Shown: positions 3,503 through 46,309 of the stretch, piece by piece
Layout: each line of letters starts with the position of its first letter
Position numbering within the stretch: position 1 is the first letter of the stretch
Origin: Cyanobacteriota bacterium
Lineage (GTDB): Bacteria > Cyanobacteriota > Cyanobacteriia > Cyanobacteriales > Microcoleaceae
Reading direction: 5' to 3'
DNA: 64,000 bases
Assembly (NCBI GenBank): GCA_034189005.1
Contig: JAXHVR010000009.1
Location: 11,413-75,412 of the forward strand
Notes under the pieces: generated by a model
What the model was told of the DNA's origin: nothing
Database searches by the model: none
The model's input: the letters and a program-made list of their open reading frames with translations, nothing else
Made by a program: the position numbers and the translations under genes

Positions 3503-4633
3503 ATGATAGTTGAGGCGGACGAAAGGATAGTTAAAAGTTGGTTGGAAGAGCAAACTAGGTATCCTCAAGATTTTAAGACTAATATCTCGGAAGCTGATGA
3601 GATGTTTTTATATGCTTTGCAGAATTTGGGCGATCGCGATCGCGCTACTATTCGTTATTATTTCATCGGTAAAAGAATACTTGATGCGGTAAAACAAGTT
3701 CTTAATTGGCACTTTGAGAAAACACAAATATCCTCTTTTCTCGATTTTGCTTGCGGTTACGGTAGGTTTACTCGCTATTTAATTCAGGAGTTGCCCCCAG
3801 AGAAAGTTTGGGTAGCGGATATTTACGCCGAGGCGGTGAATTTTCAACGGGAATATTTGGGGGTTAATGGCATTGTTTCGACGGTTGAACCGGAAGACTT
3901 TTCCCTGGAAAATAAGTTTGATTGTATTTTAGCTTGTTCCTTTTTTAGTCATATTCCCGAGAGAAGATTTGCCAGTTGGATGCAAAAGTTGTACGATTTG
4001 TTAACAAATGTAGGGGTGTTAATGTTTAGCGTCCACGATGAGGCGCTTTTGCCTTCTAATGTGGAAATAGGAAGTGGGGGAATTTTGTTTTCCCCTGCCA
4101 GCGAAAGTCGGTTTTTGGATAAGGAGGAATACGGCACTACTTTTGTTAATGAAGCATTTGTTAGGAAAGTAGTAGCATCGGTAAGCGAAGGCCAAGCATT
4201 TATTTGCCGCATAAAAGAGGGTATTTGCGGGGCTCAAGATTTGTATTTAGTAAGCAAAAAACCTTTCAAAGATTTGGATAGTTTTAATTTTCGATACCAT
4301 CCTAAAGCTGGTTTGGAGTATTGTCAGGCGATCGCTGACGATCGTATCCGTTTGAAGGGCTGGGCGATCGATCTCAACCCACAGGGTAAAATAGATGATA
4401 TTTTAATTGTTGTCAATGGCCAAATAGTTGAAAAATGCCAGCCAAGCTATTCGCGACCAGATCTGGCTGAAAGATTTCCAAATTCTGAGTTATTGAATTG
4501 CGGTTGGTCTTGCGATTTTGCCACGGATAAAGTATCCTTGGATGATGTTATTTCTATTAAGGCAGTTAATAATTATGGCTTGGAATGGATTATGGAGGTT
4601 AATACTCTAAAACAATTAACAACTAACAATTAA
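3503..4633 (+). CDS. class I SAM-dependent methyltransferase with C-terminal GW/RPD beta-module
   Basis: Motif I LDFACGYGRFTRYL. The C-terminal ~100 aa (RLKGWAID...SRPDLAERFP...GW) recurs in other proteins of the locus. Confidence 0.8.
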   Translation: MIVEADERIVKSWLEEQTRYPQDFKTNISEADEMFLYALQNLGDRDRATIRYYFIGKRILDAVKQVLNWHFEKTQISSFLDFACGYGRFTRYLIQELPPEKVWVADIYAEAVNFQREYLGVNGIVSTVEPEDFSLENKFDCILACSFFSHIPERRFASWMQKLYDLLTNVGVLMFSVHDEALLPSNVEIGSGGILFSPASESRFLDKEEYGTTFVNEAFVRKVVASVSEGQAFICRIKEGICGAQDLYLVSKKPFKDLDSFNFRYHPKAGLEYCQAIADDRIRLKGWAIDLNPQGKIDDILIVVNGQIVEKCQPSYSRPDLAERFPNSELLNCGWSCDFATDKVSLDDVISIKAVNNYGLEWIMEVNTLKQLTTNN

Positions 4634-4658
4634 TAATTAACAATTAACAATTAACAAT
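4611..4658. repeat. heptamer array (CAATTAA/CAACTAA/TAATAAT mix) spanning a stop codon and ending at the next ATG
   Basis: Period-7 repeat between 3503..4633 and 4662..10895. Confidence 0.9.
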
Positions 4659-4661
4659 TTT

Positions 4662-7600
4662 ATGAATGCAAAAAATAGTAATAGTAAAAACCATAAAGCT
4701 TTTTTGATTTCTGGGATGCATCGTTCCGGTACTTCTTTGACAGCTTCTTTGCTGCAAAAGGCGGGGATTAATATTGGTAAAAAATTAGTGGGGCCGGAAT
4801 ATGGAAATATTAAGGGTCATTTTGAGAACATAGATTTTGTCAAATATCATCAGGAAATATTGCGATCGCAAAATATTGATGACTTGGGCAGCAACCTTTT
4901 AGACGAACAAGAAATTGTAATTGGAGAAAAGGAGAAAAAAAGAGGAAGACAGTTAATTAAAAAGCATCAAAAAGGTAAGGATTTGTGGGGGTGGAAAGAC
5001 CCTAGAACTACATTATTTTTGGATTTGTGGTTGGAATTACTGCCGTACGCAAACTTTATTTTTATCTTCCGATCGCCCTGGGAAGTAGTTGACTCTCTCT
5101 ATCGGCGATCGACGGATGAAAACTTGGTAGAATCTCCAGAGGTTGCCGTGAAAATGTGGCAGCTTTATAACCGCAGAATATTGAAATTTAATCAAAACTT
5201 ACCAGACCGATGCCTGATAGCTAACGTGGATAAGGTGGGTAAAAATCCTGAAGGTTTTATTAAAGCAATTAACGATAAATTTAATCTAAATTTAACAGCA
5301 CCATCGGAGGAAAACTTTGATGAATCTTTATTAATTAAAAATATAGAAAATACTCATCGCCCCTGGTTGATAGAGAAAAACTATCCCCAAACTTTAGAAA
5401 TTTATCGGCAGCTAAAAGCAGCGGCGATCGAAATCGAACCAGCGGACGATGGCGAAGAAAAAATTAGCGCCCCAACTTCAGAAAATTGGGCGTTTAGAGA
5501 TTGGTTCGACGTCCGCAGTTTAGAAAAACAAGCTCAGATTCTAGAATTAGAAGCTTTGCAATTACATAAAGATGTCGAAGACTGGCATAAATTATTTGAA
5601 GAAGCGCAAGAAAGAGCGATCGCCCTAGAAGCGGCATTAGGAGAAACGGAACTAAAACTAGACGGCAAAGAACTAAAACTACAAGAATCTTCAGAGAAAT
5701 TAGAAGGACTAGAAGCGGAACTCGGAGAAGCCCAAACACAGTTAGACGGTACTAAAGTTAAATTATTAGAATCTCAAACCAAAGTAGCAACTTTAGAAAG
5801 AAAACTCGGACAAACCCAAGCACAATTAGACGGTACCCAGGTCAAACTTATAGACTCCCAGAAAAAAGTCCTGGGATTAGAAACAGATTTAGGGCAAACT
5901 CAAGCCAGACTGGAAGGTTCTGAAACTCGCTTTCAAGAATCTTTAACTAAACTTGTGGGACTAGAAACTAAACTCGGTCAAACCGAGGTGCAATTAGAAG
6001 GGACTAAAACCAAATTACATCAGTCTCAGAAGCTTTTGTTAGGACTGGAAACAGAATTAGGACACGCTCAAATTCAGTTGAATACTACTCAATTGAAATT
6101 AGAAGAGTCCCAGAAGAAAATACAGGGTTTAGAGAAAGAATTGGGAGACACTCAGTTGCGACTGGATGGTTCTCAAGCACAAATAAAAGAGTCCCAGGCA
6201 AAAATAGGAGAGTTAGAAGGGGAACTGGGAGAAACCCAACAGCGACTGGATGGTTCTCAAGCACAAATAAAAGAGTCCCAGGCAAAAATAGGAGAATTAG
6301 AAGGGGAACTGGGGCAAACCCAACAGCGACTGGATGGTTCTCAAGGACAAATAAAAGAGTCCCAGGCAAAAATAGGAGAGTTAGAAGGGGAACTGGGAGA
6401 AACTCAGTTGCGACTGGATGGCAGTCAAAACCAATTAAAACAATCTCAATCAAAAATAGGGGAGTTAGAAGGGGAACTGGGGCAAACCCAACAGCGACTC
6501 AACGGCACTCAAGTCAAATTAGATGAGTCCCAGGGGAAAATACAGGTATTAGAAACGGAACTGGGGCAGACTCAACAACAACTACAGGGGACTCAGGCAC
6601 AACTGGGGCAAACTCAAGCAGAATTAACTCAAACCCAGACTGCCCTCGGTCAAACTCAAAGCGCCCTAAGCCAAACCCAGACATTATTAGGAGAAACTCA
6701 GACGGTTTTGGTGCAAACCGAGGTGACTCTGGGGCAAACTCAGGCAGAATTAATCGCCCAACGGCAGGAAACTCAAGAACTGCGGGAAGAAATTTTAGCC
6801 ATGAGATCTTCCAAGTTCTGGAAACTGCGGGAGAAATGGTTTAATTTCAAACGGAGACTGCGGGGGTTGCGATATTGCATCCGCAAGGCTTCGCCAACGC
6901 GCTTTGTCTTCTCCCTCGACACTCCCACCAGTTGGGAAATTTCCAGCCCTCAATTAGAAGTAGTTGGCTGGTGTTTTGCGCAGGGCGCAAACTTATTTAA
7001 CAACAATAACGGAAATCTTGAAGTGGATGCCATCCGCGCCCGCATCGCAGACCGAACCTTTGACGGCAGCTACGGCATCGAACGCCTCGACGTCGCCCAA
7101 AAACACGACCATACCCCCGCCGCCCAAAATTCGGGCTTCCAAATTCAACTGGAACTACCCCCAGGACGGCATCAACTGGTACTAGAAGCAAAAGATAGGA
7201 AGGATAAATGGCATAGCATCGCCTCCTATCCCATCATCGTTTCCACGGTTCAAGCAAACTTCGATGCCCCGGCAACCTTCGAACAACGGGAAGGAATGGT
7301 GTTATTTGCCGGCTGGTGTTGCCATCCAGAGAAGAAAATTTCCAAATTAACCCTGCGTTGCGGCGATGTTTCTATCGACTGCGCCTACGGTTTGCGTCGC
7401 AAAGATGTCGCCGAAGCTTTCCCACAATGGGTTGGCAGTTTGGATAGCGGTTTCGAGGCAACTGTAGAGTTACCGCCGGGAGAATGGCCGCTAATTTTAG
7501 AGGCAACTTTAGATACCGGGGAAATTGTCGGTTTTCAATGCCAGAATAGTTTGAAAGTCCGCCGCTACGGCGTTTTAGACCGCGCTAAAGACAAGCGCCT

Positions 7601-10600
7601 GGAGTTGTTGCAGCTTGGGGCTGCGGTTCGCAAGCGCGCCGCTGAGAGGAAACAGCGTTTGGGGCGGATCGTACCTTTGCCCTGGGAGTTGCCCCGCGTC
7701 GCCCGCCGGGTTATCGAGATGTATCGGGAACAAAAAAGTTTTGGGGAGTTGTCGCCGCCGGCTGGTTTTCTGATGCCGGTGTCGGTGGAACCTTACGAAG
7801 CTTGGTTGGAGGTGAATAAATGGGGCGATCGCGCTTTCGATCGTCTGACATCTCGCTTGGAAGGGGCGGCGGCGGATAGTTTGCCGAAAATTTCCGTGGT
7901 GATGCCGGTTTATAACCCGCCAGTGGAGTTTTTACGGGAGGCGATCGCCAGCGTAACCAACCAAGTTTACCAAAACTGGGAACTCTGCATCGCCGACGAC
8001 TGCAGTACCGACCCGGAAATTCGCCAAATTTTAAGCGAGTTGGCAGCGGACGATCCAGCCGACGACGACCGTAGAACAGGCGTCTCGCCTGTTCCAGCAG
8101 AAAGCGACGACCGTAGAACAGGCGTCTCGCCTGTTCCAGCAGACCCTCGCATCAAAATAAAATTTCGCGAAGAAAACGGCAACATCAGCGCCGCGACCAA
8201 CACCGCCGCCTCTCTGGCGACGGGAGACTTTATTCTATTCCTAGACAACGACGACGAACTAACTCCCGACGCCCTAGCAGAAGTCGCCCTCTATCTGGCA
8301 GAACATCCAGAAACCGACTTCCTCTATTCCGACGACGACAAGATCGATACGGAAGGCGATCGCTTCGACCCTCAATTCAAACCCGAATGGTCTCCAGAGT
8401 TGCTTCTATCCTTCATGTACATGGGGCATCTCTGCGCGGTTCGCCGAGAAATCTTTGAAAAAGTCGGAGGTTTGCGAGTCGGTTACGAAGGTTCCCAAGA
8501 CTACGACTTCGCCCTCCGGGCAACGGAAGTTTCCCGCAAAGTTGCCCATTTACCGTTAATCTTGTACCACTGGCGAACCGCCCCCGGTTCCACTGCCGTT
8601 TCCGGCGGCGAAAAACCTGCCAGTTTTGCAGCGGGGCGGCAGGCGGTACAAGATGCCTTGGATCGTCGCGGGGTTTCGGGGAAAGTAGATCGACCGGACT
8701 GGGCGATCGCTGAGAATTTGGGAATTTTTGCCCCGGAGTTTCCCCAGACCGGCCCTTCGGTGACGATTATTATTCCTACTAAAAATCAACTCCATTTTAT
8801 CAAGGGTTGTCTGGAGTCTCTGGAGAAGACTTCTTATCAGAATTATCGGGTTTTTGTCATCGATAATGAAAGCGACGATCCGAAAACTTTGGAGTATTTG
8901 GAAGGTGTTGGAGGATCCCCCCCTGCCCCCCTTGAAAAGGGGGGAGAAAGAAAGGTTGGAAAAGCGGGAGAAGTACGGGTTTTAAAAATACCTAATGAGG
9001 GGGGGAAATTTAATTTTGCCGCCATTAATAACCGCGCTGTCGAACAAGCAGAAACAGATTATATTCTATTTCTTAATAACGACACGGAAATTATTACCGA
9101 AAATTGGTTGAGTCAGATGGTTGGTTACGCCCAACTCCCCGGAGTCGGTGCCGTTGGGGCGAAGCTGATTTATCCAGACGGACGGATCCAACACGCGGGA
9201 ATAATTCACGGTTTGCATCACGGTCTGGCGGGTCATGCTTTTAAGTTAATGCCTTCGGAAAATCGCGGTTATTTGTCTCAAGCTGCGGTAGGGAGAAATT
9301 ATTCGGCGGTGACTGCTGCTTGTATGTTAACTCATAGGGAATTGTTTTTAGAAATGGGCGGTTTTGACGAGGAGAAATTCGCCGTTGCTTATAACGATGC
9401 GGACTACGGTTATCGACTTTTAGAAAAAGGTTATCGTTCGGTTTATTGCCCCGAAGCGGAGTTAATTCATCGGGAAGGAACCAGTCGCGGTTTTGTGGAT
9501 AATCCCCGGGAGGAAGCAATTTTTCGCCGCCGCTATGCCGAGATGGTAGATAAGTTTTATAGTCCCCATTTCTCTCTGGCAAATGAGTTATTCGAGGTTC
9601 AACCTCGGCGCTATTTTCTATCCCCCCCAACTCCCCTTGGAAAAGAGGAAGACCGTAGAACAGGCATCTTGCCTGTTGATGATGCGGAACAAGAAACCCG
9701 GTTTTTTGGAAAAACCGGGTTTCTGGGGGGGAGGAAAATTACATTATTAATGTGCAGTAATTCTTTAGATTTTACTGGGGCGCCTTTACATCAATACGAA
9801 ATTGCAGTTCAACTAGCTTCTGAAGGAATAGTTAAACCCATAATATTTTCTCCCACGGAAGGTCCGTTGCGTAAGGTTTACGAGGAGAAAAATATTGAAG
9901 TAATAGTGTTAGATAATCCCCTGGAACATATTTATCAACGGGATGATTACGATGCCGCATTGGAAAGCTTTGCTAAAGAAATAGAAGGGCTAAATGCTGA
10001 CGTAATTTATGCTAATACTTTAGAGAACTTTTTCCTAATAGATATTGCCCAGATGCTAAATATTCCTAGCGTTTGGAACGTTCACGAAAGCGAACCTTGG
10101 CAAACTTATTTTAATCGCTTCGGACCGGAAATAGCGACTCGCGCTTTGGAATGTTTCCGCTATCCTTATCGGATTATTTTTGTGGCGGATGCGACGCGGG
10201 ATAAATATTTACCTCTCAACAGTCACCATAATTTTACGGCAATTCATAACGGTTTGGATTTGGAATTGTTGAAAAGTTCGGCTAAGAAATGGTCTCCAGA
10301 GGAGGCGAGGGCGGCTTTGGGAGTTAATTCCGATGAGATTGTTTTGTTAATTTTGGGGACGGTTTGCGAAAGAAAAGGTCAAGAAGATTTGGTTAAAGCA
10401 ATACCTTATATTGGGGCGGAATGGGTAGGTAAAATTAAGTGTTTTATTGTAGGCGATCGCCCCAGTTTATATAGCAGTCAATTATCTGCTTTGGTGGCGG
10501 GTTTACCAGAGGAGTTAAAAGGGCGCATAGAAATAGTTCCAGAAACTCCCGATACTGCCAAATATTATCAAGCAGCAGATATCTTCGTTTGTACTTCGCG

Positions 10601-10895
10601 AATAGAAAGTTATCCCCGAGTAATCTTAGAGGCAATGGCTTATAATTTGCCAATAGTTACGACTCCAGTTTTCGGCATTGTGGAACAAGTGAAACCGGGA
10701 ATTAACGGTTTGTTTTATACCCCAAACCAACCCGAAGAATTAGCCTCGCAGTTGATGATTTTATTGGAGGATGAAGAGTTAAGGTTGCGACTGGGAGATA
10801 ATGCGAAATATGTGTTGGATGCGTTGAATACTTTTGAAGAAATGACCGCAGCTTACAGTCAGATATTTTGCGAAGCGTATTTGAGTCGTTCGTAA
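4662..10895 (+). CDS. 2077-aa multidomain glycan assembly protein: sulfotransferase, ~430-aa coiled coil, 2x beta-module, GT2, GT2, GT4
   Basis: PAPS-type motifs GMHRSGTS and FRSPWEVVDSLYRR. 28-aa/7-aa repeats span nt ~5520-6810. GT2 signatures are VVMPVYNP..DDCSTD..LDNDDE and IIIPTKN..IDNESDD..LNNDTE. The C-terminal GT4-like part reads FVCTSRIESYPRVILEAMAYNLPIV. Confidence 0.85.
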   Translation: MNAKNSNSKNHKAFLISGMHRSGTSLTASLLQKAGINIGKKLVGPEYGNIKGHFENIDFVKYHQEILRSQNIDDLGSNLLDEQEIVIGEKEKKRGRQLIKKHQKGKDLWGWKDPRTTLFLDLWLELLPYANFIFIFRSPWEVVDSLYRRSTDENLVESPEVAVKMWQLYNRRILKFNQNLPDRCLIANVDKVGKNPEGFIKAINDKFNLNLTAPSEENFDESLLIKNIENTHRPWLIEKNYPQTLEIYRQLKAAAIEIEPADDGEEKISAPTSENWAFRDWFDVRSLEKQAQILELEALQLHKDVEDWHKLFEEAQERAIALEAALGETELKLDGKELKLQESSEKLEGLEAELGEAQTQLDGTKVKLLESQTKVATLERKLGQTQAQLDGTQVKLIDSQKKVLGLETDLGQTQARLEGSETRFQESLTKLVGLETKLGQTEVQLEGTKTKLHQSQKLLLGLETELGHAQIQLNTTQLKLEESQKKIQGLEKELGDTQLRLDGSQAQIKESQAKIGELEGELGETQQRLDGSQAQIKESQAKIGELEGELGQTQQRLDGSQGQIKESQAKIGELEGELGETQLRLDGSQNQLKQSQSKIGELEGELGQTQQRLNGTQVKLDESQGKIQVLETELGQTQQQLQGTQAQLGQTQAELTQTQTALGQTQSALSQTQTLLGETQTVLVQTEVTLGQTQAELIAQRQETQELREEILAMRSSKFWKLREKWFNFKRRLRGLRYCIRKASPTRFVFSLDTPTSWEISSPQLEVVGWCFAQGANLFNNNNGNLEVDAIRARIADRTFDGSYGIERLDVAQKHDHTPAAQNSGFQIQLELPPGRHQLVLEAKDRKDKWHSIASYPIIVSTVQANFDAPATFEQREGMVLFAGWCCHPEKKISKLTLRCGDVSIDCAYGLRRKDVAEAFPQWVGSLDSGFEATVELPPGEWPLILEATLDTGEIVGFQCQNSLKVRRYGVLDRAKDKRLELLQLGAAVRKRAAERKQRLGRIVPLPWELPRVARRVIEMYREQKSFGELSPPAGFLMPVSVEPYEAWLEVNKWGDRAFDRLTSRLEGAAADSLPKISVVMPVYNPPVEFLREAIASVTNQVYQNWELCIADDCSTDPEIRQILSELAADDPADDDRRTGVSPVPAESDDRRTGVSPVPADPRIKIKFREENGNISAATNTAASLATGDFILFLDNDDELTPDALAEVALYLAEHPETDFLYSDDDKIDTEGDRFDPQFKPEWSPELLLSFMYMGHLCAVRREIFEKVGGLRVGYEGSQDYDFALRATEVSRKVAHLPLILYHWRTAPGSTAVSGGEKPASFAAGRQAVQDALDRRGVSGKVDRPDWAIAENLGIFAPEFPQTGPSVTIIIPTKNQLHFIKGCLESLEKTSYQNYRVFVIDNESDDPKTLEYLEGVGGSPPAPLEKGGERKVGKAGEVRVLKIPNEGGKFNFAAINNRAVEQAETDYILFLNNDTEIITENWLSQMVGYAQLPGVGAVGAKLIYPDGRIQHAGIIHGLHHGLAGHAFKLMPSENRGYLSQAAVGRNYSAVTAACMLTHRELFLEMGGFDEEKFAVAYNDADYGYRLLEKGYRSVYCPEAELIHREGTSRGFVDNPREEAIFRRRYAEMVDKFYSPHFSLANELFEVQPRRYFLSPPTPLGKEEDRRTGILPVDDAEQETRFFGKTGFLGGRKITLLMCSNSLDFTGAPLHQYEIAVQLASEGIVKPIIFSPTEGPLRKVYEEKNIEVIVLDNPLEHIYQRDDYDAALESFAKEIEGLNADVIYANTLENFFLIDIAQMLNIPSVWNVHESEPWQTYFNRFGPEIATRALECFRYPYRIIFVADATRDKYLPLNSHHNFTAIHNGLDLELLKSSAKKWSPEEARAALGVNSDEIVLLILGTVCERKGQEDLVKAIPYIGAEWVGKIKCFIVGDRPSLYSSQLSALVAGLPEELKGRIEIVPETPDTAKYYQAADIFVCTSRIESYPRVILEAMAYNLPIVTTPVFGIVEQVKPGINGLFYTPNQPEELASQLMILLEDEELRLRLGDNAKYVLDALNTFEEMTAAYSQIFCEAYLSRS
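6158..6577 (+). repeat. five near-identical 84-bp (28-aa) tandem units inside the coiled-coil region
   Basis: GCGACTGGATGG recurs at 6158, 6242, 6326, 6410 and 6494, exactly 84 nt apart. The unit encodes LEGELGETQQRLDGSQAQIKESQAKIGE. Confidence 0.95.
6563..6752 (+). repeat. nine 21-bp (heptad) tandem units, consensus LGQTQxx
   Basis: CAAAC(T/C)CA(A/G)-type units every 21 nt; peptide LGQTQAE LTQTQTA LGQTQSA LSQTQTL LGETQTV. Confidence 0.9.
8064..8142 (+). repeat. two in-frame tandem copies (42-nt period) of the GTAGAACAGGCGTCTCGCCTGTT palindromic element inside a GT2 domain
   Basis: GACGACCGTAGAACAGGCGTCTCGCCTGTTCCAGCAG occurs at 8064 and 8106 and encodes DDRRTGVSPVPAES twice. Confidence 0.95.
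9654..9723 (+). repeat. in-frame GTAGAACAGGCATCTTGCCTGTT element plus AGAAACCCGG/CCGGGTTTCT hairpin in the GT2-GT4 linker
   Basis: Encodes RRTGILPV...ETRFFGKTGFL. Both elements also occur intergenically in the window. Confidence 0.95.
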
Positions 10896-16575: not shown

Positions 16576-17787
16576 ATGTTCAACCTCGACACTCCCCAAA
16601 CCAAGGAATTAAATTACTTAACCAAATTTGCCGGGTGGTATATTCCCGAGGAATCTATTCCAGTTGGGGGAGAAGTTAAACTACAAATTTATCTCAACGG
16701 CAAACCTCATGCAGCTTTATTGCATGGAGGCGATCGCCCCGACGTAGCCAAAGTTTTTCCCGACAAAAAAAACGCCGCAACTAGCGGTTTTTGGGGCGAA
16801 CTATTGCTGCCGGAAACTATTAAACCAGAATCAAATATAGAAATAGAAATAGTAGCAGAGGGCAACCCTACCAAATCTCTTTATAAAAATCAATTTAAAG
16901 TAATTGGTAAACCCAAAATATTCCCAGAAAGAGAGAGGATATTTAACCTCGAAGAAATGTTGAAATGTCCGAGTTGCGACAATCGAATTAAGAAACCGGG
17001 TTTATTTGAAAAACCCGGTTTCTGGAACCGAGATTCACTCACCAACAGGCAAGATGCCTGTTCTACGAATTCCTGCCAGCAAACAAATTGCCCCATCTGG
17101 AAAAGAGGCAATACCTTCCATTTTTTACAACCAGAAGAAGTACCCTTCACCAGACTAACAGAACCGCAAAACACCCATCCCTATTCCGAAAGCATTCTCA
17201 AAGTCTTAGAAAAAATCGGAGATAAAGGAATAGTATTAGACTTTGGTGCCGGCAACACCCAACCAGAATACCTAAAACCCAATATTTGCTATCTGGAAGT
17301 GCAGCAATATCCCTTCACAGATATCGTCTGTACCACTCCCAAACTACCCTTCGCAGACAACAGTTTTGATGGAGTCATAAGTCACGCAGTCTTCGAACAC
17401 ATTCCCAATCCTTTTATAACTGCAAAAGAACTTTTTAGAATTTTAAAACCTGGAGGATTAATATTTATCGACACCGCATTTTTACAACCATTTCACAGCG
17501 ACCCAAATCATTATTTCAACATGACAATTCAAGGCTTGCGGCAAATAATGTCGGACTTTGAAGAAATCAACAGCGGCATTTTAGAACATCATTATCCCTC
17601 TTATAGTTTAATGATGTTAATCAGAATAATTTGGCCCCATCTGGAACAAAAACAATGGAAAAATCGTTTGGCAGACTGGCACGCATTTTTAATCCAAGAA
17701 GGCGATAATCTCGATGAAATGTTAGGCGAAAAAGGCAGAGAAATCCTCGCAGCAGGCGTCTTTTTTGAAGGGCGAAAACCAATTTAG
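16576..17787 (+). CDS. GW/RPD beta-module fused to class I SAM methyltransferase (type 11)
   Basis: The N-terminus FAGWYIP...GDRPDVAKVFP...SGFWG matches the recurrent module. The C-terminus has VLDFGAGN..FDGVISHAVFEHIPNP..LKPGGLIFI. The linker contains in-frame palindromic repeats. Confidence 0.8.
   Translation: MFNLDTPQTKELNYLTKFAGWYIPEESIPVGGEVKLQIYLNGKPHAALLHGGDRPDVAKVFPDKKNAATSGFWGELLLPETIKPESNIEIEIVAEGNPTKSLYKNQFKVIGKPKIFPERERIFNLEEMLKCPSCDNRIKKPGLFEKPGFWNRDSLTNRQDACSTNSCQQTNCPIWKRGNTFHFLQPEEVPFTRLTEPQNTHPYSESILKVLEKIGDKGIVLDFGAGNTQPEYLKPNICYLEVQQYPFTDIVCTTPKLPFADNSFDGVISHAVFEHIPNPFITAKELFRILKPGGLIFIDTAFLQPFHSDPNHYFNMTIQGLRQIMSDFEEINSGILEHHYPSYSLMMLIRIIWPHLEQKQWKNRLADWHAFLIQEGDNLDEMLGEKGREILAAGVFFEGRKPI
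16991..17066 (+). repeat. in-frame AGAAACCGGG/CCCGGTTTCT hairpin plus AACAGGCAAGATGCCTGTTCTAC element in the module-MTase linker
   Basis: Encodes KKPGLFEKPGFW ... RQDACSTN. Confidence 0.95.
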
Positions 17788-28100: not shown

Positions 28101-31100
28101 ATGAATTGCAAAGTTTGTCAATCTCAATCTCTTCCATTTGCCAGCGCTAAAATTTTAAACAGCAAATACAATATCCAATATTTTCAATGTCAAAACTGCG
28201 GTTTTATTCAAACTGAAGAACCTTACTGGTTAGGTGATGCTTATGCAAAAGCGATCGCCCCCAGCGATGAAGGTTTAATCTTTAGAAATTTGATGCTGGC
28301 GCAAATTACTAACAACATAATTAGTAACTTTTTTAGTCCCGAAGATAATTTCATAGATTTCGGCGGCGGTTACGGTTTGTTTGTGCGTTTAATGCGAGAC
28401 ATCCGCTACAACTTTTTCTGGCAAGATAAATATTGTCAAAATCTTTTCGCCGAGGGTTTTGAAGCCAAAGGCATTAGCTCTTATCAATTACTAACTGCTT
28501 TTGAAGTATTCGAGCATTTAGTCAATCCTTTGGAAGAAATAAAAGAACTCTTAAAATATTCCCCAAATATCCTCTTCAGCACCGAAATTATTCCACCAAA
28601 TAACCCAAAACCCGACGAGTGGCACTACTACGCCCTCAACGAAGGTCAACACATTTCTTTATATAGCCTTCAATCCTTATCAGTCTTAGCAGAAAAATTG
28701 GGCTTGAATCTCTACACCAATAATTCATCCATCCACCTGCTGACAAAAAAGAAAATATCTCAAGAATCTTTTGCAAAACAGTCTGAATATAACGCAGCAA
28801 AACTGAGACAATATTTGTGGCGATCGCGAGATTATCTAAAAACATTTGAACTCCTCAAAGCTACCGATAAAAAAACAAACATTCCCCAAACTCACTCCTT
28901 CGTCAGCCGGGAATTAGGAGTCAACGTCGCCGGTTTTGTTAAAGGAGAATTAGGCATAGGAGAAGGAGTAAGAGCAACAATTAGAGCCATAGAAACTACA
29001 GGCATTCCTTATGTCATTAATAACATCATCAGCACCCCCCACCGCAACTCAGATATTACCTATCAAGACAAATTTTCCCACGAAAATCCTTACCCCATAA
29101 ATATCTTTCAAGTCAACGCCCACGAAGTCAACACCTTTATGAAAAGAGGGGCGATCGAAAAATACTTTCCAGGGCGATATAATATCGGTTTTTGGGCGTG
29201 GGAACTTACTAAATTTCCCCCAGAATGGATGTCGGCTTTTGCACCGTTTAACGAAATTTGGGCTTACAGCAACTACTGCGTGGAATCAATTGCAGCGGTC
29301 TCGCCGATACCGGTTATTAAAATGATGCCCAGTATTTCTTTGCCGATGCCTTCTCTGGTCCGAGAAGATTTAAAATTGCCGCCAGATAAATTTATCTTTC
29401 TATTTATATTCGACTTTTTCAGCCATCTGGAACGAAAAAATCCCATCGCTACTATTAAAGCCTTCAAACAAGCTTTTGGGGAGAGTAACCCGGACGTTTT
29501 GTTAGTGATTAAATGTTCTAACTCGCAAAAATTTCCTGCCGATAGAGCGAGATTAATTGAAGCGATCGCCAACAGCCCATCTATTAAATTAATAGACGGT
29601 TATTTATCCAAAGATAAAATTAACGCCCTGCTCTATCACTGCAACTGTTATGTATCCCTGCATCGCGCCGAAGGCTTTGGTTTAACTATGTCGGAAGCCA
29701 TGTTTTATGGCAAACCAGTAATTGCTACTGGTTATTCTTCTAATATAGAATTTATGAACGTCGGCAATAGCTTTTTAGTCGATTACGAGAAAGTAGAAAT
29801 ATCTGGAAATTACGGACCTTACAAACGAGGAGATATTTGGGCAGAGCCCGGCGTCGAACATTGCGCCAATTTAATGCAATATGTTTTTAATAATTATCAA
29901 AAAGCCCAACAAGTAGGGGCGAGGGCAGCCAGGGAATTAAAGACTTTATTAAGCCCGGAGGCGATCGGGGAAAAAATTAAAAACCGTTTGGAATATATTG
30001 CTAAATTAACAGATAATTTCAGCAGCTTACCTCAACCGGGTTTAATCGCGCCATCCGGTTTTTCGTTATCCCAGAAACCCGGTTTTTTGAAAAAACCGGG
30101 TTTCTCGAAGGCAAAAAACCAACAGCCCTTAGTCAGTCTTTGCATCCCGACTTTTAATGGAGAAGCTTTTATTAAAGAAGCCCTTATAAGCGCTACTTCT
30201 CAGACATATCCAAATTTAGAAATAATCGTTGCCGACGACAGTTCCACCGATAGAACCGTCGAGATAGTCAGAGAATTTCAGCGAGAAAATCCCGCCGCTG
30301 ACTTGCGAATTATTCTGCATCGAAATTATGGTTTAGTCGGTAATTTAAACTTTTGCATCTCCCAGGGGCGAGGTAAATATATTAAGTTTTTATTTCAGGA
30401 TGACTTGTTGGCATCGAACTGCGTCGAGGAAATGGTTGAACTAGCAGAAAGCGATCGAGAAATAGGTTTAGTATTTTCTCCCCGGCGAGTGTTTTTAGAA
30501 CCTGGGGCCGAGTCGAATCAAACTTGTATGGCAGCATATCGAGGCACTCAAGATTTACATAAAGATTGGTCGAATTTAAAAACAGTTCAGTGGGGGAAAG
30601 AATTATTAATAGATGCTAATTGGATGATAGGTCGGTTGAATAAAATTGGCGAACCGACAACGGTTTTAATTCGCAAAGAAGTTTTTGATAAAGTAGGAGT
30701 TTTCGATCCTAGCCTGACTCAACTTTTAGATGTGGATATGTGGTTGAGAATTATGGGGAATTTTAAAATTGCTTTTGCGAAGGAAACTTTATCGCAACTG
30801 CGGGTCCATCCCCGCCAGCAAACTCAACTCAATCTAACTTCTGGGAAAAATACTGAAGATTATCAGCGGTTTTATCAGAAATTATTAGAGGATTCGACTT
30901 ATAGCTTTTTGAATCGGGAGCTTAAAGAAAAAGTAAGACGAAAATTAGGTATTAAATATGAATTGAATCTCTCCCAAATTTCAACTTTGGTTAAAGAGTA
31001 TCAAAAATCTCTGAGGAACGATTCCGCATTAATTAATCTGCGACAAGCTCGCTTGGAACTTGCGAAGAGATTGGTGCAACTCCCAGCAGAAGAGTTGAAA

Positions 31101-36887: not shown

Positions 36888-36890
36888 AAA

Positions 36891-39745: not shown

Positions 39746-41518
39746 ATGCTTAAACATTTCCCCAGATTATCTGACAACAAAATACTTTTATTAATTCTCT
39801 ATATTCTCCCAGTTGCTCTACTTTTATGGTTCGTGGCTAGCTTTAGCGTTAACGTTCCTTTTTGGGACCAGTGGAGATTGGTAAATATGTTCGATAAAGT
39901 AGGCAGCGGCAATGCTAGTTTTTCGGACTTTTTTGAAGTTCACGGACACCACCGCATCTTTTTCCCAAAAATTATTATTACTGCCCTAGCTTTTGCTTCT
40001 GGATGGAATACTCAATACGAGATAATTTGCAGCGTTATTTTTGTGGTTATAACCTTTTGGTTCCTGTGCAAAATTGCCGCGAGTAAAACGCAAAATAAAG
40101 GCGATAATTTAATGCATATCGCCAATATTTTAACCTGTATGTTGCTGTTTTCTTTGGTTCAACATCAAAACTGGTTGTGGGGGTTTACGCTTTTTTGGTT
40201 TTTGACTAATTTATGTTTGGTAATGGCGGTGTTTTTTCTCTGTTGTAATGAGAAGCGATCCTGTGGGGGCGAACAGGGGAGGCACCTGTTCTACGCCGGT
40301 ACTTCCTGTTTTATCGGCAGCTTTACTTTAGCCCAAGGTTTGCTCGCTTGGCCGATTCTAATTCCAGCAGTTTTCTCTCTGGAAGGCAACTTCCGTCAAA
40401 AACTCAAAAGAGTTTTAATCTGGATGGGAATTTTTCTAGTTTCATGTTTCATCTATTCTCTTAATTACAACCCAATTCGCGAACCACAACCATTTTTATT
40501 TTTGGAACGACCTTTCGTAGTAATTAATTACTTTTTCACCGTTCTAAGTTTGCCTCTGGTGCGGGTTCCCATTCCTTCAATTATCGTCGGCTTTTTATTA
40601 TTCTCGTGTTTCCTATTTTTTTGTTTCTATTTTATAAGAATAAGAGGCAAGATGCTGGTTCTACATCCAGAGGCATTGCCTTGGTTGTCCGTAGGTTCCT
40701 TCGCCATCATCTCATCCCTTTCTATTACCGCAGGACGGGCCCAATACGGCGTAGAAAATGCAATTATTTCCTCCAGATATACCACGACATCGGTCTTATT
40801 AATCGTTGCTTTAATTCATTTATTGGCATTGTTTTGGCGTCAAAACTCTCTCTCGAATTCAATATTTACTATTGGTGCGGTCATTTTAACAGGTATTATC
40901 GCTGTAAACTCGATTTATGTTATTAACAGAATTAAAACAGAATTGCCTTATATGCAAGGTAGAAAAGAGTGCTTGGAAATTATTAATTATCTGGAAAAGT
41001 CTGAATTTATGCAAGAAGCGCCAGAGAGTTGTTTGGTATTATTAAACGGCAAAACTTGGTTGGTCAGAGAAGGGGCAGAAATTATGGATAAATTGGGATG
41101 GCGTGAATTTCCCGACGAGATGGAATTTGTTAGCACGCCAGAACGGGTTTATGGTTATTTGGATACGCCTCCAGATGGGTTGGGGGAAACAGGCAAGATG
41201 CCTGTTCTACGGAATGAGGCGGTAACTGTAACTGGATGGGCGACTATTCCAGAAAGGGAGGAAACGCCGAATTTAGTGTTATTATCTTCAGGGGAAAATC
41301 GAACTTTTTTTGCCAATGCTTATGTAGTATTAGACAGCCCCGATCTAGCTAAAACTTTAAAGTCAAAGGAATACAAAAAAGCGAGATGGCAAGCGGAGTT
41401 TTCGGGTAAAGATTTAGGAATGGGAGAGGGGGCGATCGCTGCTTGGGTATATAATGCCAAAGACAAGCAATTTGTTAAATTAAGCGACGAATTAAAAATA
41501 GAAGTTAAAAAGCCTTGA
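39746..41518 (+). CDS. polytopic membrane protein (GT-C-like?) with C-terminal GW/RPD-type beta-module
   Basis: About 12 hydrophobic segments and a soluble C-terminal ~120 aa (VTVTGWATIP...DSPDLAKTL). Same architecture as 44531..46309. Confidence 0.7.
   Translation: MLKHFPRLSDNKILLLILYILPVALLLWFVASFSVNVPFWDQWRLVNMFDKVGSGNASFSDFFEVHGHHRIFFPKIIITALAFASGWNTQYEIICSVIFVVITFWFLCKIAASKTQNKGDNLMHIANILTCMLLFSLVQHQNWLWGFTLFWFLTNLCLVMAVFFLCCNEKRSCGGEQGRHLFYAGTSCFIGSFTLAQGLLAWPILIPAVFSLEGNFRQKLKRVLIWMGIFLVSCFIYSLNYNPIREPQPFLFLERPFVVINYFFTVLSLPLVRVPIPSIIVGFLLFSCFLFFCFYFIRIRGKMLVLHPEALPWLSVGSFAIISSLSITAGRAQYGVENAIISSRYTTTSVLLIVALIHLLALFWRQNSLSNSIFTIGAVILTGIIAVNSIYVINRIKTELPYMQGRKECLEIINYLEKSEFMQEAPESCLVLLNGKTWLVREGAEIMDKLGWREFPDEMEFVSTPERVYGYLDTPPDGLGETGKMPVLRNEAVTVTGWATIPEREETPNLVLLSSGENRTFFANAYVVLDSPDLAKTLKSKEYKKARWQAEFSGKDLGMGEGAIAAWVYNAKDKQFVKLSDELKIEVKKP
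40271..40294 (+). repeat. in-frame GAACAGG..CCTGTTCTAC palindromic element (variant loop)
   Basis: GAACAGGGGAGGCACCTGTTCTAC inside CDS 39746..41518. Confidence 0.85.
41188..41210 (+). repeat. in-frame AACAGGCAAGATGCCTGTTCTAC element
   Basis: Identical 23-mer to 17044..17066 and 3357..3379. Encodes TGKMPVLR at the start of the C-terminal module. Confidence 0.95.
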
Positions 41519-41570
41519 CAGTTCCGCCAATATTTGTTTAAATTTTCTAGTGAAGCAATTGGGGTGGATT

Positions 41571-42958: not shown

Positions 42959-43507
42959 ATGAACGTAATTAAAACAGAAATACCAGATGTTTTATTAATC
43001 GAACCCAAAGTTTTTGGGGACGATCGCGGCTTCTTTTTTGAAAGTTTCAACCAGAAAAGTTTCTCAGACAAAACAGGAGTAAATCTTGACTTCGTTCAAG
43101 ACAATCATTCCCGTTCTGTCAAGGGAGTTTTGCGAGGTTTGCACTACCAAATAGAACAAACTCAAGGTAAGTTACTCAGAACAGTTGTCGGAGAAATATT
43201 CGATGTCGCCGCAGACATTCGCAAAAATTCTCCAACCTTTGGCAAGTGGGTAGGTTATATGCTAACTGCGGAAAATAAACGACAACTTTGGATACCGCCG
43301 GGTTTTGCCCACGGTTTTTTAGTAGTATCTGAAGTGGCGGAAGTTTTGTACAAAGCGACGGATTATTACGCGCCGCAACACGAACGTTCTATTCTTTGGA
43401 ACGACCCAGATATTGGCATTGAGTGGCCGATAGAAGGGATAACGCCAATTTTATCTAAAAAAGACGAAGCAGGTAAAACATTTAAAACAGCGGAAATATT
43501 TGAATGA
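42959..43507 (+). CDS. rfbC: dTDP-4-dehydrorhamnose 3,5-epimerase
   Basis: FGDDRGFFFESFN..VQDNHSRS.KGVLRGLHYQ..QGKLLRTV.GEIFDVA.DIR..SPTFGKW..WIPPGFAHGF is a classical RmlC. Confidence 0.93.
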   Translation: MNVIKTEIPDVLLIEPKVFGDDRGFFFESFNQKSFSDKTGVNLDFVQDNHSRSVKGVLRGLHYQIEQTQGKLLRTVVGEIFDVAADIRKNSPTFGKWVGYMLTAENKRQLWIPPGFAHGFLVVSEVAEVLYKATDYYAPQHERSILWNDPDIGIEWPIEGITPILSKKDEAGKTFKTAEIFE

Positions 43508-44382
43508 AAATATTATTAACAGGACTGGACGGACAATTAGGCAAACAATTGCAATCTTTCCTCGCACCTTTGGGGGATTTAACTACTGTAGGACGGGCAA
43601 CTTTAGACTTAGCAAATGCTGAGGATATTTATAAAGCGATCGAGGAAGTTAAGCCGGAAATAATTGTTAATGCGGCAGCTTATACTGCGGTTGACAAATC
43701 GGAAAGCGAAGTGGAATTAGCCACGGCAGTTAACGGTACGGCCCCAGGGATTTTAGCCGCCGAAGCTGAAAGGTTGGGGGCGACTTTAATTCATGTTTCG
43801 ACGGATTATGTATTTGATGGAACTCGAAGCGTTCCTTATTTGGAAAGCGATCCTACTAATCCCCTCGGTGCTTATGGCGCTTCTAAGTTAAAAGGTGAAG
43901 AAGCAATTGAGAAGACCAATGCCAAGTATGTTATTATCAGAACTGCTTGGGTTTATGGTGCTTATGGCAAGGGAAATTTTGTCAAAACTATGCTGAGATT
44001 GGGGAAAGAAAGGGAGGAATTGCGAGTAGTTTACGACCAAGTTGGAACTCCGACTTGGACGGGAGATTTGGCAGGGGCAATTAGTCAATTAATACCCCGT
44101 TTGAGTGGAGATAATTTGGGGATTTATCATTATACCAATAGCGGGGCTATTAGTTGGTACGATTTCGCGATCGCCATTTTTGAAGAAGCAGAAAAACTCG
44201 GTTTTCCTCTTAAGATTAAACGAGTGGTTCCTATTACTACTGCCGAATATCCAACACCGGCAAAACGCCCTGCTTATTCAGTATTAAATTGCGCCAAAAT
44301 TTCCCAAGTTCTCGAAACTTATCCGCCCCACTGGCGGGAAGGTCTCCGACAAATGTTGAAGGAGTTGGCAGAGATTTCGTAG
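43504..44382 (+). CDS. rfbD: dTDP-4-dehydrorhamnose reductase
   Basis: MKILLTGLDGQLG Rossmann start, STDYVFDG, YGASKLKGE. ATGA overlap with rfbC. The stop TAG lies within a GTAGAACAGG repeat. Confidence 0.93.
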   Translation: MKILLTGLDGQLGKQLQSFLAPLGDLTTVGRATLDLANAEDIYKAIEEVKPEIIVNAAAYTAVDKSESEVELATAVNGTAPGILAAEAERLGATLIHVSTDYVFDGTRSVPYLESDPTNPLGAYGASKLKGEEAIEKTNAKYVIIRTAWVYGAYGKGNFVKTMLRLGKEREELRVVYDQVGTPTWTGDLAGAISQLIPRLSGDNLGIYHYTNSGAISWYDFAIAIFEEAEKLGFPLKIKRVVPITTAEYPTPAKRPAYSVLNCAKISQVLETYPPHWREGLRQMLKELAEIS

Positions 44383-44518
44383 AACAGGCGTCTCGCCTGT
44401 TATCCGTAGAACAGGCGTCTCGCCTGTTTCCGTAGAACAGGCGTCTCGCCTGTTTCCGTAGAACAGGCGTCTCGCCTGTTATCCGTTACCGCTGGAACAG
44501 GCGAGACGCCTGTTCTAC
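44378..44518. repeat. array of four direct copies plus one inverted copy of GTAGAACAGGCGTCTCGCCTGTT
   Basis: 27-29-nt period with no unique spacers. The first copy contains the rfbD stop codon. Confidence 0.92.
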
Positions 44519-44530
44519 AATTATTTTTTT
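44458..44530 (+). terminator. terminator-like long hairpin formed by the last direct and the inverted GTAGAACAGG copies, followed by a T-run
   Basis: A 23-bp stem (44458-80 pairs with 44495/6-44518) followed by AATTATTTTTTT. Confidence 0.4.
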
Positions 44531-46309
44531 ATGTTAATGAAAGAAAAGCTAAATTGGGGATTTATTATCCCAACAATTATCGGATTTTTACTACCAGCAA
44601 TCTACGTTTTATATCTGATATCGCAAGCGGGGCATCTGCTCAATTTCGACTATTGGTGGATGATAAAAAATATCTACTCAATAGATGGCTTTTCGACAAA
44701 TCCTTTCGACTGGATGTTTCGCGCCAACGAACATTTTGTCCTAATTCCCGCTATTATTTACGCCCTCAATATTGTTATTACCAAAGGCTCAAATATTGGT
44801 CTGTGTTTGGCAACATTTTTATTAGCTGTAGTTCAAAGTGTTTTTTTAATTAAATTATTGCCAGAAAAGGTAACAGGGAATAGCAGGGTTCTGCGGTTAT
44901 TAATAATCTGTATTTCTCTATTTAACTTTACCCCCGCAGCCGCCCATAATTGGATGCGAGGTTATAGCGGCGTGCATTGGGTTATTGCTAATTTATTTGT
45001 TATTGCTTCTATTTATTGCCAGACAAAATTATTACAATCTAATCCTAACAAATGGGCAATTGCTAGCATCATCTTCGGCATTTTAGGCTGCATCAGTTAC
45101 AGCACTCCGCTAGCATTATGGCCGATATTATGTGCTGCTTCGCTTTTAATGCGGTTGCCAAGGCGGATTATTATTGCTTATTTTACCTGTACAATTTTAG
45201 TCGTAGGTACTTATTTTATTACCTACAAAACCCCCTCCCACCATCCATCTTTATCCCAAGTTAATCTTGTCGATACCCTCGCCTATATTCCTGTTTATTT
45301 AGGAGCAATTTTCAGTCATAATATTCCGGTTGCTTTAATAATTGGAACTTTCGGTTTAATTTTGGCGGCAGTTTTTCATCTTTATTGGTTATTATCAAAA
45401 CCGTTGAATAATATCGACTGGTTGCCGTGGTTGTCGATAATAATCTACAGTTTTGGAACGGCATTAATGGCAGCAATTAGTCGTTCTGGTTTTGGCATCG
45501 AACAAGCGATCGCCTCCCGTTACGCTACCCTCCCCGCCCTTTTTTGGTTGAGTCTAATCGTCTTAACAATTTTTAGGATAAACCAGACACAAATCTCCTC
45601 TATTTCCAAGGGGAAAATCTCAGAAACCCGGTTTTTTAAAAAAACCGGGTTTCTAGATCGGCTATTTAGAAAAAAGCAATATTTTCTAATACCAGTAGTC
45701 GCAGTGGTGACAGTTTTAACAATCTTAACCTACGGAGTCGGGGGCAAAACTGCGGAGGCGATCGCCCTAAGAGCAACCTATCAACCTTTAGTAGCATTAT
45801 CCGTACAACTTAATATCGCCGACCCCCTATTAATTCAGGAAAAAGTAGGCAACAGACCGGAAGCTTTTATTAGCTTATTAGATGCATTAAAAGCTCATAA
45901 TTTAGTGCCTTTTCATAAGAATATTAAAAATGATAATTTTTGCGTTCCATTAGGAATAAAAATTGATAGCAATCTATTAACAAACGAACCCCAAGAAAAC
46001 GTGCCCGGATATTTCGATCCCATAACCCAATATACCCCCGCAACAGCCAGAGTAAAAGGTTGGGTGGGGGAAAGCGACAAAATTAAATGTATTGCCATCC
46101 TCAACCAAGATAGAATAGTAAGAGGTTTTGGGATGTCTGGCTTTCCCCGCCCCGACGTAGCCGAAATTATGGGTTCCGAGTTTGAGTCATCGGGCTGGAA
46201 AGGATACATCGAAGCATCCCCAGACGATGTTTTAGCTGCCTACGTTTCCTTGAAAAACCGTCCCGGTTGGGTAGTATTGCGCGATAAGCGCAGTTTAATT
46301 AATAATTAA
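44531..46309 (+). CDS. polytopic membrane protein (GT-C-like?) with C-terminal GW/RPD beta-module
   Basis: About 12 hydrophobic segments. C-terminus reads ARVKGWVGE...FPRPDVAEIMG...SGWKG. An in-frame palindromic repeat encodes SETRFFKKTGFL. Ends ...LINN* in a heptamer array. Confidence 0.7.
   Translation: MLMKEKLNWGFIIPTIIGFLLPAIYVLYLISQAGHLLNFDYWWMIKNIYSIDGFSTNPFDWMFRANEHFVLIPAIIYALNIVITKGSNIGLCLATFLLAVVQSVFLIKLLPEKVTGNSRVLRLLIICISLFNFTPAAAHNWMRGYSGVHWVIANLFVIASIYCQTKLLQSNPNKWAIASIIFGILGCISYSTPLALWPILCAASLLMRLPRRIIIAYFTCTILVVGTYFITYKTPSHHPSLSQVNLVDTLAYIPVYLGAIFSHNIPVALIIGTFGLILAAVFHLYWLLSKPLNNIDWLPWLSIIIYSFGTALMAAISRSGFGIEQAIASRYATLPALFWLSLIVLTIFRINQTQISSISKGKISETRFFKKTGFLDRLFRKKQYFLIPVVAVVTVLTILTYGVGGKTAEAIALRATYQPLVALSVQLNIADPLLIQEKVGNRPEAFISLLDALKAHNLVPFHKNIKNDNFCVPLGIKIDSNLLTNEPQENVPGYFDPITQYTPATARVKGWVGESDKIKCIAILNQDRIVRGFGMSGFPRPDVAEIMGSEFESSGWKGYIEASPDDVLAAYVSLKNRPGWVVLRDKRSLINN
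45622..45654 (+). repeat. in-frame AGAAACCCGG-loop-CCGGGTTTCT hairpin in a loop of the membrane protein
   Basis: Encodes SETRFFKKTGFL. Confidence 0.95.

Follow-up and report, generated by a model that had tools for sequence, protein, structure and literature searches.

The closest described counterparts of the locus reported here are pathways of O-polysaccharide assembly that depend on an ATP-binding cassette (ABC) transporter. WbbB and WbdD-WbdA (Klebsiella O12 and E. coli O9a) combine a distal modifying enzyme, a long coiled coil and proximal glycosyltransferases (GTs) with Wzm and a Wzt that bears a carbohydrate-binding module (CBM), and in these prototypes an amphipathic helix and the polymerase are found at the membrane-proximal end of the coiled coil (PMC11231755). 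Wzt CBMs operate in the same type of pathway as the one considered here (PMC11231755), and CBMs also occur on membrane GTs: the C-terminal periplasmic immunoglobulin (Ig)-like CBM of the Citrobacter youngae GT-C enzyme ORF12 pulls down unmodified O-polysaccharide, and the CBMs of EmbC and AftD bind their acceptors (PMC11127046). Work on ABC-transporter-dependent glycans has so far centred on coiled-coil rulers, terminators and the transporter CBM, and it is less well understood how tailoring enzymes such as methyltransferases, or the GT-C enzymes of the periplasm, locate the polymer. Here we analyse a stretch of 64,000 nucleotides from a cyanobacterium of the Microcoleaceae (contig JAXHVR010000009.1, positions 11,413 to 75,412), referred to as the window, in which six copies (m1-m6) of one small Ig-like module, a divergent branch of the Big_7 family as judged by profile comparisons, are carried by five proteins of a polysaccharide-assembly locus. 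The shared module yields a concrete and testable targeting hypothesis for enzymes on both sides of the membrane.

The six copies are as follows:
nt 4310-4630, + strand: m1, residues 270-376 of the open reading frame (ORF) 3503..4633; C-terminal; cytoplasmic
nt 6900-7244, + strand: m2, residues 747-861 of ORF 4662..10895; first of a tandem pair; cytoplasmic
nt 7245-7571, + strand: m3, residues 862-970 of ORF 4662..10895; second of the tandem, directly upstream of the GT2-GT2-GT4 polymerase part
nt 16576-16911, + strand: m4, residues 1-112 of ORF 16576..17787; N-terminal; cytoplasmic
nt 41180-41515, + strand: m5, residues 479-590 of ORF 39746..41518; C-terminal; predicted periplasmic; marginal by sequence
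nt 46004-46306, + strand: m6, residues 492-592 of ORF 44531..46309; C-terminal; predicted periplasmic

All copies share the core GW ... [R/S]-[P/L/K]-D-[V/L]-A ... G[F/W], with R-W as the last motif of m5, and the G, W, D and A are invariant in the aligned m1-m6. Pairwise identity among the copies is 16-34%. Pairwise BLAST connected m2 with m3 (3e-13), m3 with m4 (2e-5) and m1 with m6 (2e-4), the remaining pairs being weak, and leave-one-out profiles built from the six copies recovered m1 (1e-8), m3 (2e-5) and m4 (9e-5), gave weak scores for m6 (0.027) and m5 (0.14) and failed for m2 (3.3). Because the evidence from the window was uneven across the copies, outside sequences were brought in. 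When 1.84 billion cluster representatives were searched exhaustively by HMMER with the profile of the six copies, it returned 3,208 proteins at E<=1e-3, 901 at E<=1e-10 and 101 at E<=1e-30. A profile made from 300 domain instances of these external proteins, containing zero window sequences, was then run on every six-frame ORF of at least 50 residues in the window, 372 in total. Its top six hits were exactly m1-m6 (m1, 1.8e-13; m4, 1.1e-12; m3, 6.9e-9; m2, 5.3e-8; m6, 3.1e-5; m5, 0.047), with the best background ORF at 1.6; no seventh copy was detected among these ORFs, which include Wzt and a second giant protein, 28101..32780.

The score of m5, although sixth best in the window, is weak taken alone. 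Its membership is backed by the paralogy of its host with the host of m6, by an orthologue in Oscillatoria nigro-viridis PCC 7112 (44% identical) that reaches 1.7e-4 with the external profile, and by its alignment in register with the other five copies; when m5 and its orthologues were compared with those five by hhalign, the motifs again fell in register (E 0.0014, probability 17%). We conclude from these comparisons that m1-m6 are homologous copies of one domain of ~105-110 residues, m5 being only a marginal member by sequence. The alternative, that some or all of the segments are unrelated and have only short motifs in common, draws on the non-significant BLAST pairs, the leave-one-out failure of m2 and weak results for m5 and m6, and the silence of Pfam and NCBIfam on all six segments, but it is extremely improbable given that the independent external profile retrieves exactly these six, five of them at 3e-5 to 2e-13, and that the six-copy profile pulls thousands of representatives out of 1.8 billion proteins. 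For m1-m4 and m6 the profile searches refute chance resemblance; only m5 might still be doubted, and its orthologue reaches 1.7e-4. Recent duplication inside the locus was ruled out as the source of the copies by their low mutual identity and their separate retention in orthologues.

An earlier note on this DNA, made from the letters alone, had described a recurrent, beta-rich module of ~100 residues in six copies on five proteins. The six segments, of ~105 residues, are indeed present in the ORFs and frames assigned to them, in C-terminal, internal tandem or N-terminal position, and the module is autonomous. Both kinds of carrier that it had named, soluble enzymes and polytopic membrane proteins, were found. 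The note could not place the module in a named family, and here the analysis goes further. In the best 150 external proteins the domain occurs 2-9 times each with a median spacing of 111 residues, which fixes the length of the domain. Those ranked highest are amidases, glucosaminidases, subtilases and NlpC/P60 hydrolases that carry Big_7 arrays, and a search with the external consensus gave Pfam PF17957, Big_7 ('Bacterial Ig domain'), with an E-value of 3.7e-16. The Pfam Big_7 model itself was not reported for the host proteins (E<=1) or for any isolated module (E<=10), and scans with Pfam and NCBIfam gave nothing on the modules except sub-threshold matches of the beta-sandwich families MalQ_N and DUF4399 on m2. 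Since the Pfam model misses all six copies, the link to Big_7 runs only through intermediate sequences; it is strong for m1-m4 (2e-13 to 5e-8) and m6 (3e-5) and reaches only 0.047 for m5. These results place the module in the Ig-like family Big_7 (PF17957), on a divergent branch. The claim of a module outside any named family is thereby removed, whereas its co-occurrence on the proteins of the locus stands and extends to related loci.

The window copies resemble Big_7 domains in their period of ~110 residues, the GW ... RPDV ... SGF pattern, the predicted all-beta sandwich and their single or tandem occurrence, and differ in escaping the Pfam model. They differ as well in their carriers: Big_7 is typically borne by secreted hydrolases (amidases, glucosaminidases, subtilases, chitinases), whereas the carriers in the window are biosynthetic, namely methyltransferases of the cytoplasm, a polymerase and membrane enzymes of GT-C-like type. 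With this assignment a family can be given to regions of ~100 residues for which Pfam and NCBIfam at present report nothing, on thousands of glycosyltransferases, methyltransferases and GT-C-like proteins.

An AlphaFold2 (AF2) model of m4, built on a shallow alignment of 12 rows, consists of seven beta-strands and one short helix at RPDVAK (predicted local distance difference test score, pLDDT, 69.9; predicted template modelling score, pTM, 0.58), and the five models were concordant. The best Foldseek matches of this model were Ig-like domains (major histocompatibility complex class II, CD22, FN3 and phage Ig-like domains) and CBM21, at E>=0.05 and template modelling scores of 0.45-0.55; the match to a glycogen-targeting CBM21 had an E-value of 0.075 and a score of 0.47 and was non-significant. 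With moderate confidence, the module is predicted to be an Ig-like beta-sandwich at the level of fold class. The suggestion of a CBM-like or Ig-like fold made in the earlier note is in this way supported only as to fold class by the m4 model and its best matches, and no specific structural analogue emerged for it.

Zero matches were found among PDB sequences with the six-copy profile. A profile of 37 sequences found, beside noise such as HflX, only the endolysin EfAmi1 (8C4D), at residues 218-301 (E 0.009). In this segment the GW, RPDV and GF motifs are in register with those of the module, and the domain is missing from the crystal. According to the authors of that structure, the structure and function of the EfAmi1 C-terminal domain are unknown, and a role in peptidoglycan binding was proposed (PMC10167349). 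Judged by its motifs and profile match, this 'unknown' domain apparently belongs, as a distant member, to the Big_7-like module family.

The modules m2 and m3 belong to the largest of the carriers, which is encoded close to an ABC transporter:
847..1695, + strand: Wzm (Pfam ABC2_membrane, 8e-23)
1887..3302, + strand: Wzt with a Wzt_C carbohydrate-binding domain (Pfam ABC_tran, and Wzt_C at 4e-25)
4662..10895, + strand: giant enzyme, host of m2 and m3, 2,077 residues, with, in order, a sulfotransferase, a coiled coil of ~450 residues, a basic amphipathic segment, m2, m3, GT2, GT2 and GT4/GT1

Pfam places Sulfotransfer_3 at residues 15-211 of the giant enzyme, matches to tropomyosin, crescentin and the myosin tail at residues 286-718, and GT2, GT2 and GT4 domains at residues ~1040-2049. 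Residues 717-746, between the coiled coil and m2, are basic and aromatic, with a net charge of +7 and a hydrophobic moment of up to 0.57, ~3 standard deviations above the mean of the protein. The domain content of Wzm and Wzt defines an ABC-transporter-dependent pathway predicted to recognise a chain-terminal modification. As in proteins of the WbbB/WbdD type, a modifying domain and GT modules stand on either side of a coiled coil, in a locus with a Wzt-CBM, and the giant enzyme resembles WbbB in its terminator-ruler-polymerase layout. Because the layout matches those of WbbB and WbdD/WbdA, m2 and m3 would be placed where the lipid-linked chain grows. The giant enzyme differs from WbbB and WbdD-WbdA in that its putative terminator is a sulfotransferase, which by analogy suggests that a terminal sulfate could be the export signal. 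It also has two Ig-like modules between coiled coil and polymerase; the term 'Ig-like' is unmentioned for the prototypes in PMC11231755. The analysis thus flags a giant WbbB-like enzyme from a cyanobacterium, with a sulfotransferase at the ruler's distal end. Part of its coiled coil is a tandem repeat of 84 bp (28 residues; window positions 6158-6542, 4.6 copies, 84% match), and the coiled coil is the least conserved part of the enzyme and differs in length among relatives, as expected of a tunable chain-length ruler.

Two methyltransferases carry one module each, at opposite ends of the protein:
3503..4633, + strand: S-adenosylmethionine (SAM) methyltransferase, host of m1, directly after wzm-wzt; class I, with Pfam Methyltransf_12/25/23/11 at residues 58-187
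16576..17787, + strand: methyltransferase, host of m4, with Pfam Methyltransf_11/23 at residues 201-309

The host of m1 is a candidate modifier or terminator of the chain. Both methyltransferases and the giant enzyme were without a signal peptide, an N-terminal hydrophobic segment or a stretch of transmembrane grade, and m1-m4 are considered cytoplasmic for this reason. This placement is the one expected for users of SAM, 3'-phosphoadenosine-5'-phosphosulfate (PAPS) and nucleotide sugars.

The remaining two copies are on polytopic membrane proteins, one of which is followed by a gene for a polyprenyl-phosphate GT:
39746..41518, + strand: membrane protein, host of m5; polytopic by hydropathy; likely a GT-C-type glycosyltransferase
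44531..46309, + strand: membrane protein, host of m6; polytopic by hydropathy, with ~13 transmembrane helices; likely a GT-C-type glycosyltransferase
46394..47356, + strand: ArnC/GtrB/PgfS-like polyprenyl-phosphate glycosyltransferase (NCBIfam ArnC-type 5.4e-53 and PgfS 1.2e-43, both under the equivalog cut-offs)

The hosts of m5 and m6 are collinear paralogues (E 7e-10), both with a short basic N-terminus, ~13 hydrophobic segments and a soluble C-terminal region of ~190 residues that ends in the module. The loop after the first transmembrane helix is acidic and aromatic ('FWDQW' in the m5 host and 'NFDYWW...D...E' in the m6 host), with an invariant D40 and E67. A very basic loop at residues 352-381 of the m6 host (8 K/R) lies ahead of the last transmembrane helix, and because of this K/R-rich loop the C-terminal region is predicted to be periplasmic; m5 and m6 are both placed in the periplasm by prediction. 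Across 27 orthologues, m6 shows no variation at G510, W511, G537, F538, R540, D542 and W556. Some orthologues of the m6 host are named RgtA/B/C/D-like or DUF2079 in UniRef, and a GtrB-like GT2 is found beside the m6 host, a pairing that is conserved in PCC 7112. Given the adjacent GtrB-like gene, the pairing in PCC 7112 and the UniRef names of orthologues, the hosts of m5 and m6 are likely GT-C glycosyltransferases of a three-component periplasmic glycosylation system, in which the GtrB-like enzyme would supply the lipid-linked donor to the neighbouring GT-C. General scans of ORFs of at least 100-150 residues gave no match to GtrA, and no search was aimed at a GtrA flippase. In PCC 7112 a GT2 gene comes directly after the gene for the m5-type protein, and no such neighbour of the m5 host occurs in the window, where the gene directly after it (41550-42008) encodes an Imm30 immunity protein (5e-35). 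Because an Imm30 gene follows here and a GT2 gene in PCC 7112, the m5 host may have lost a dedicated lipid-donor synthase.

Close homologues were found in Okeania, Trichodesmium, Microcoleus and Oscillatoria, which makes the source a filamentous cyanobacterium. Three related loci (L003, L004 and L005; 82%, 82% and 52% identity) all retain the methyltransferase with a module and the giant protein with two modules, and L004 also keeps the methyltransferase with an N-terminal module (the m4 orthologue, residues 3-102). The modules were kept in all orthologues examined and are 42-92% identical to them, m1 being 42-71% identical across the three loci, in comparison with 24-55% for the coiled coil. 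Between the window and L005, identity is 64% for m3, 46% for m2, 42% for m1, 68-73% for the GT domains and 24% for the coiled coil (48% of which is alignable); between the window and L004 it is 82% for m4 and 57% for the linker between m4 and the methyltransferase domain. Since region by region the modules exceed the coiled coil and the linker in identity, these comparisons indicate that the modules are under purifying selection. L005 (JBLNEP010000089.1, 1-20408) is labelled 'Actinomycetota bacterium MAG69' and has the gene order of the cyanobacterial locus, with two ORFs at the wzm/wzt positions, then the methyltransferase with a module, then the giant enzyme; the label may reflect a binning error or horizontal transfer.

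In eight of the best 150 external proteins, an array of 4-9 modules is fused to the GT2-GT2 pair seen in the giant enzyme, together with GT1/GT4 or GT9. These GT-linked arrays come from Nitrospirota, Sedimentisphaerales and unnamed metagenomes, under source names that say only glycosyltransferase or heptosyltransferase/GT2. All eight were without an N-terminal hydrophobic segment or transmembrane stretch, as opposed to 94 of the 150 external proteins (mostly cell-wall hydrolases) that have one, and the arrays of P0141, P0083 and P0073 exceed the Big_7 gathering score (24.1 bits). In P0141, P0030 and P0045, from Nitrospirota and other phyla, cytoplasmic arrays of 8-9 modules (~1,000 residues) precede GT2-GT2, apparently without a coiled coil. 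Arrays of 8-9 modules might be an alternative spacer or ruler, or a multivalent clamp on the polymer.

We propose, at roughly even chances, that the module is a CBM-like accessory domain that holds each enzyme on the nascent polysaccharide of the pathway. Before export, m2 and m3 would act at the membrane-proximal end of the coiled coil, beside the GT2-GT2-GT4 polymerase, and m1 and m4 would bring the two methyltransferases to the growing chain. After export, m5 and m6 would serve at the C-termini of two GT-C enzymes adding side branches, which would be drawn from polyprenyl-phosphate-linked donors made by the GtrB-like enzyme. Polymer binding is favoured because the glycan is the sole entity that the carriers would meet in both compartments. 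The periplasmic Ig-like CBM of ORF12, which binds O-polysaccharide, is a precedent on a GT-C enzyme; the wider family sits on enzymes of cell-wall polymers and at the C-terminus of EfAmi1; autonomous targeting modules typically vary in placement and are multiplied in tandem, as these are; and the modules are conserved in orthologues, all of which argues for targeting to glycan. The GW, RPDVA and GF motifs recur across carriers with very different substrates and for this reason are more likely determinants of the fold than contacts with ligand, so that specificity would lie in the variable loops. The earlier note had left the choice between docking and glycan recognition; recognition is the better supported by the two compartments and the ORF12 CBM, and docking among all carriers is unlikely across two compartments.

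Several known domains make useful comparisons for this proposal. ORF12 (GT136, Citrobacter youngae O1) likewise has a beta-rich Ig-like domain after the last transmembrane helix of a polytopic glycosyltransferase, and its locus is also ABC-transporter-dependent, with Wzm and a Wzt-CBM, a coiled-coil terminator and a polyprenyl-phosphate GT (PMC11127046). The ORF12 CBM and the window module are likened by description rather than by sequence, no CBM in the PDB, that of EmbC included, having been matched by the module profile; and the window family is also found on cytoplasmic enzymes, a feature undescribed for systems of the ORF12 type. The Wzt_C CBM (PF14524), of which this locus has one, is an accessory beta-sandwich that reads glycan in the same type of pathway, but it reads the chain-terminal modification, gates export and is confined to the transporter. 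That the module might be a relative of this Wzt_C was ruled out, since Wzt_C matches only ORF 1887..3302 and the module profiles miss that ORF. The CBM21 of the glycogen-targeting subunit PTG, a small beta-sandwich by which an enzyme is tethered to a polysaccharide in the cytoplasm, offers an analogy in mechanism alone, with a different ligand, no sequence relationship and the non-significant Foldseek match given above.

A number of points weigh against glycan targeting. Foldseek with the m4 model gave no match at E<=0.001 in PDB and BFVD, and as a result the resemblance to CBMs holds at the level of fold class only. Profile searches, PDB sequences and the window ORFs revealed no sequence relationship of the module to Wzt_C or to CBMs with solved structure, and identities as low as those among m1-m6 do not imply a single shared epitope. 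The periplasmic placement of m5 and m6 is taken from hydropathy and the positive-inside rule only. A GT-C fold for their hosts was not demonstrated by model or PDB search: the full-length AF2 model of the m6 host (27 close orthologues) had a pLDDT of 45 and was unusable, Foldseek with it was non-significant, with STT3 and PglB as the only targets of TMq>0.2, and the m6-host profile found noise only among PDB sequences. In the literature searched, the function of Big_7 receives almost nothing beyond listings as an auxiliary domain in chitinases and adhesins, and no binding is reported for any domain of Big_7 type that sits on a biosynthetic enzyme. Carbohydrate-active enzymes often use Ig-like domains simply as spacers. 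Moreover, the CBM of ORF12 proved dispensable in the conditions examined (PMC11127046).

Two other roles have to be weighed against the holding of enzymes on the polymer. The modules may serve docking or oligomerisation, with m1-m4 binding each other or a common partner and so joining the methyltransferases to the giant polymerase/terminator, and m5 and m6 doing likewise among the GT-C enzymes; we consider this unlikely. ABC-transporter-dependent O-polysaccharide assembly does use multiprotein complexes, with recruitment at the membrane-proximal end of the coiled coil (PMC11231755). It is at this end, right after the basic amphipathic segment, that m2 and m3 are found. Ig-like domains commonly make protein-protein contacts, and in the cytoplasmic GT TarS such domains, arranged in tandem, have a part in trimerisation. 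One network for all six is nevertheless improbable, because m1-m4 are cytoplasmic and m5 and m6 predicted periplasmic, and docking within the cytoplasmic carriers m1-m4 alone is plausible. The low identity among the copies also speaks against docking, and the wider family occurs, with as many as 9 copies in an array, on endolysins and on secreted hydrolases of the cell wall, a pattern better fitted by avidity for a polymer or by spacing.

A passive spacer, stalk or unit of folding and stability without specific ligand, spread by domain shuffling, is an explanation that we hold to be quite unlikely. In carbohydrate-active enzymes, Ig-like domains of the E-set type frequently serve as linkers, the 4-9-copy arrays ahead of GT2-GT2 enzymes in other phyla resemble stalks, the conserved motifs seem to be fold determinants common to unrelated contexts, and no ligand-binding homologue was found by Foldseek or by the profile search of PDB sequences. 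A spacer does not account for single terminal copies on small methyltransferases, which, with m1 at the C-terminus and m4 at residue 1, have nothing to space; nor for the conservation of m3, nearly that of the catalytic domains and far above that of linkers and coiled coil; nor for the restriction of all six copies in the 64-kb window to glycan-pathway proteins. Targeting to the nascent glycan is in our assessment the preferred reading. A stronger form of it, in which one Ig-like family is a pathway-wide 'address tag' on every enzyme acting on the polymer and all copies recognise the same nascent chain, is doubtful. If it were true, one shuffled domain would encode substrate targeting on both faces of the membrane, and in relatives from other phyla the long cytoplasmic arrays on GT2-GT2 enzymes might take the place of the coiled coil, as chain-length ruler or processivity clamp.

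The Big_7 family, CBMs on Wzt and GT-C enzymes, and coiled-coil terminator/polymerase proteins are already known. In the literature searched we found no description of a Big_7-type module on cytoplasmic methyltransferases and a WbbB-like polymerase, or of a single pathway in which five enzymes, on the two sides of the membrane, draw on one module family.

The window from 0.8 to 47.4 kb is a mosaic polysaccharide-assembly locus with several methyltransferases, sulfotransferases and glycosyltransferases, and the 16 kb beyond 47.4 kb contain housekeeping genes. All six modules are on glycan-pathway proteins, and none was found on the 16 kb of housekeeping genes or on the non-glycan genes interspersed in the locus. 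Other genes and features of the locus include:
28101-32780: second giant enzyme (1,559 residues: methyltransferase, GT1/GT4, GT2 and GT41-like), without a module
42959..44382: rmlC and rmlD
11451-15017 and 33873-39237: cyclic-nucleotide signalling genes embedded in the locus
22264-24318: gene for an RTX-repeat protein

The embedded signalling genes encode an adenylate/guanylate cyclase (dCache, HAMP), an MscS channel with a cyclic nucleotide monophosphate (cNMP)-binding domain, and a C39-peptidase ABC exporter that bears a cNMP-binding domain at its N-terminus, along with a HlyD-like partner. The exporter-HlyD pair is upstream of the m5-type gene in PCC 7112 too.

Finally, two families of short palindromic DNA repeats, AGAAACCCGGTTT-N-AAACCGGGTTTCT and AGAACAGGC-N-GCCTGTTC, are spread across the window:
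8061, 8103, 9645, 9690, 17067, 30077, 41211 and 45620: inside ORFs
11198-11262, 15077-15110, 24617-24650, 27478-27507, 39610, 44378-44470, 47810-47843, 59696 and 61319-61420: intergenic

Several of these repeats lie in-frame at inter-domain linkers, where they encode peptides such as ETRFFKKTGFL, DDRRTGVSPVPA, GETGKMPVLR and NRQDACST. One is located within the basic loop of the m6 host, and another at the N-terminal edge of m5, where the PCC 7112 orthologue lacks it.

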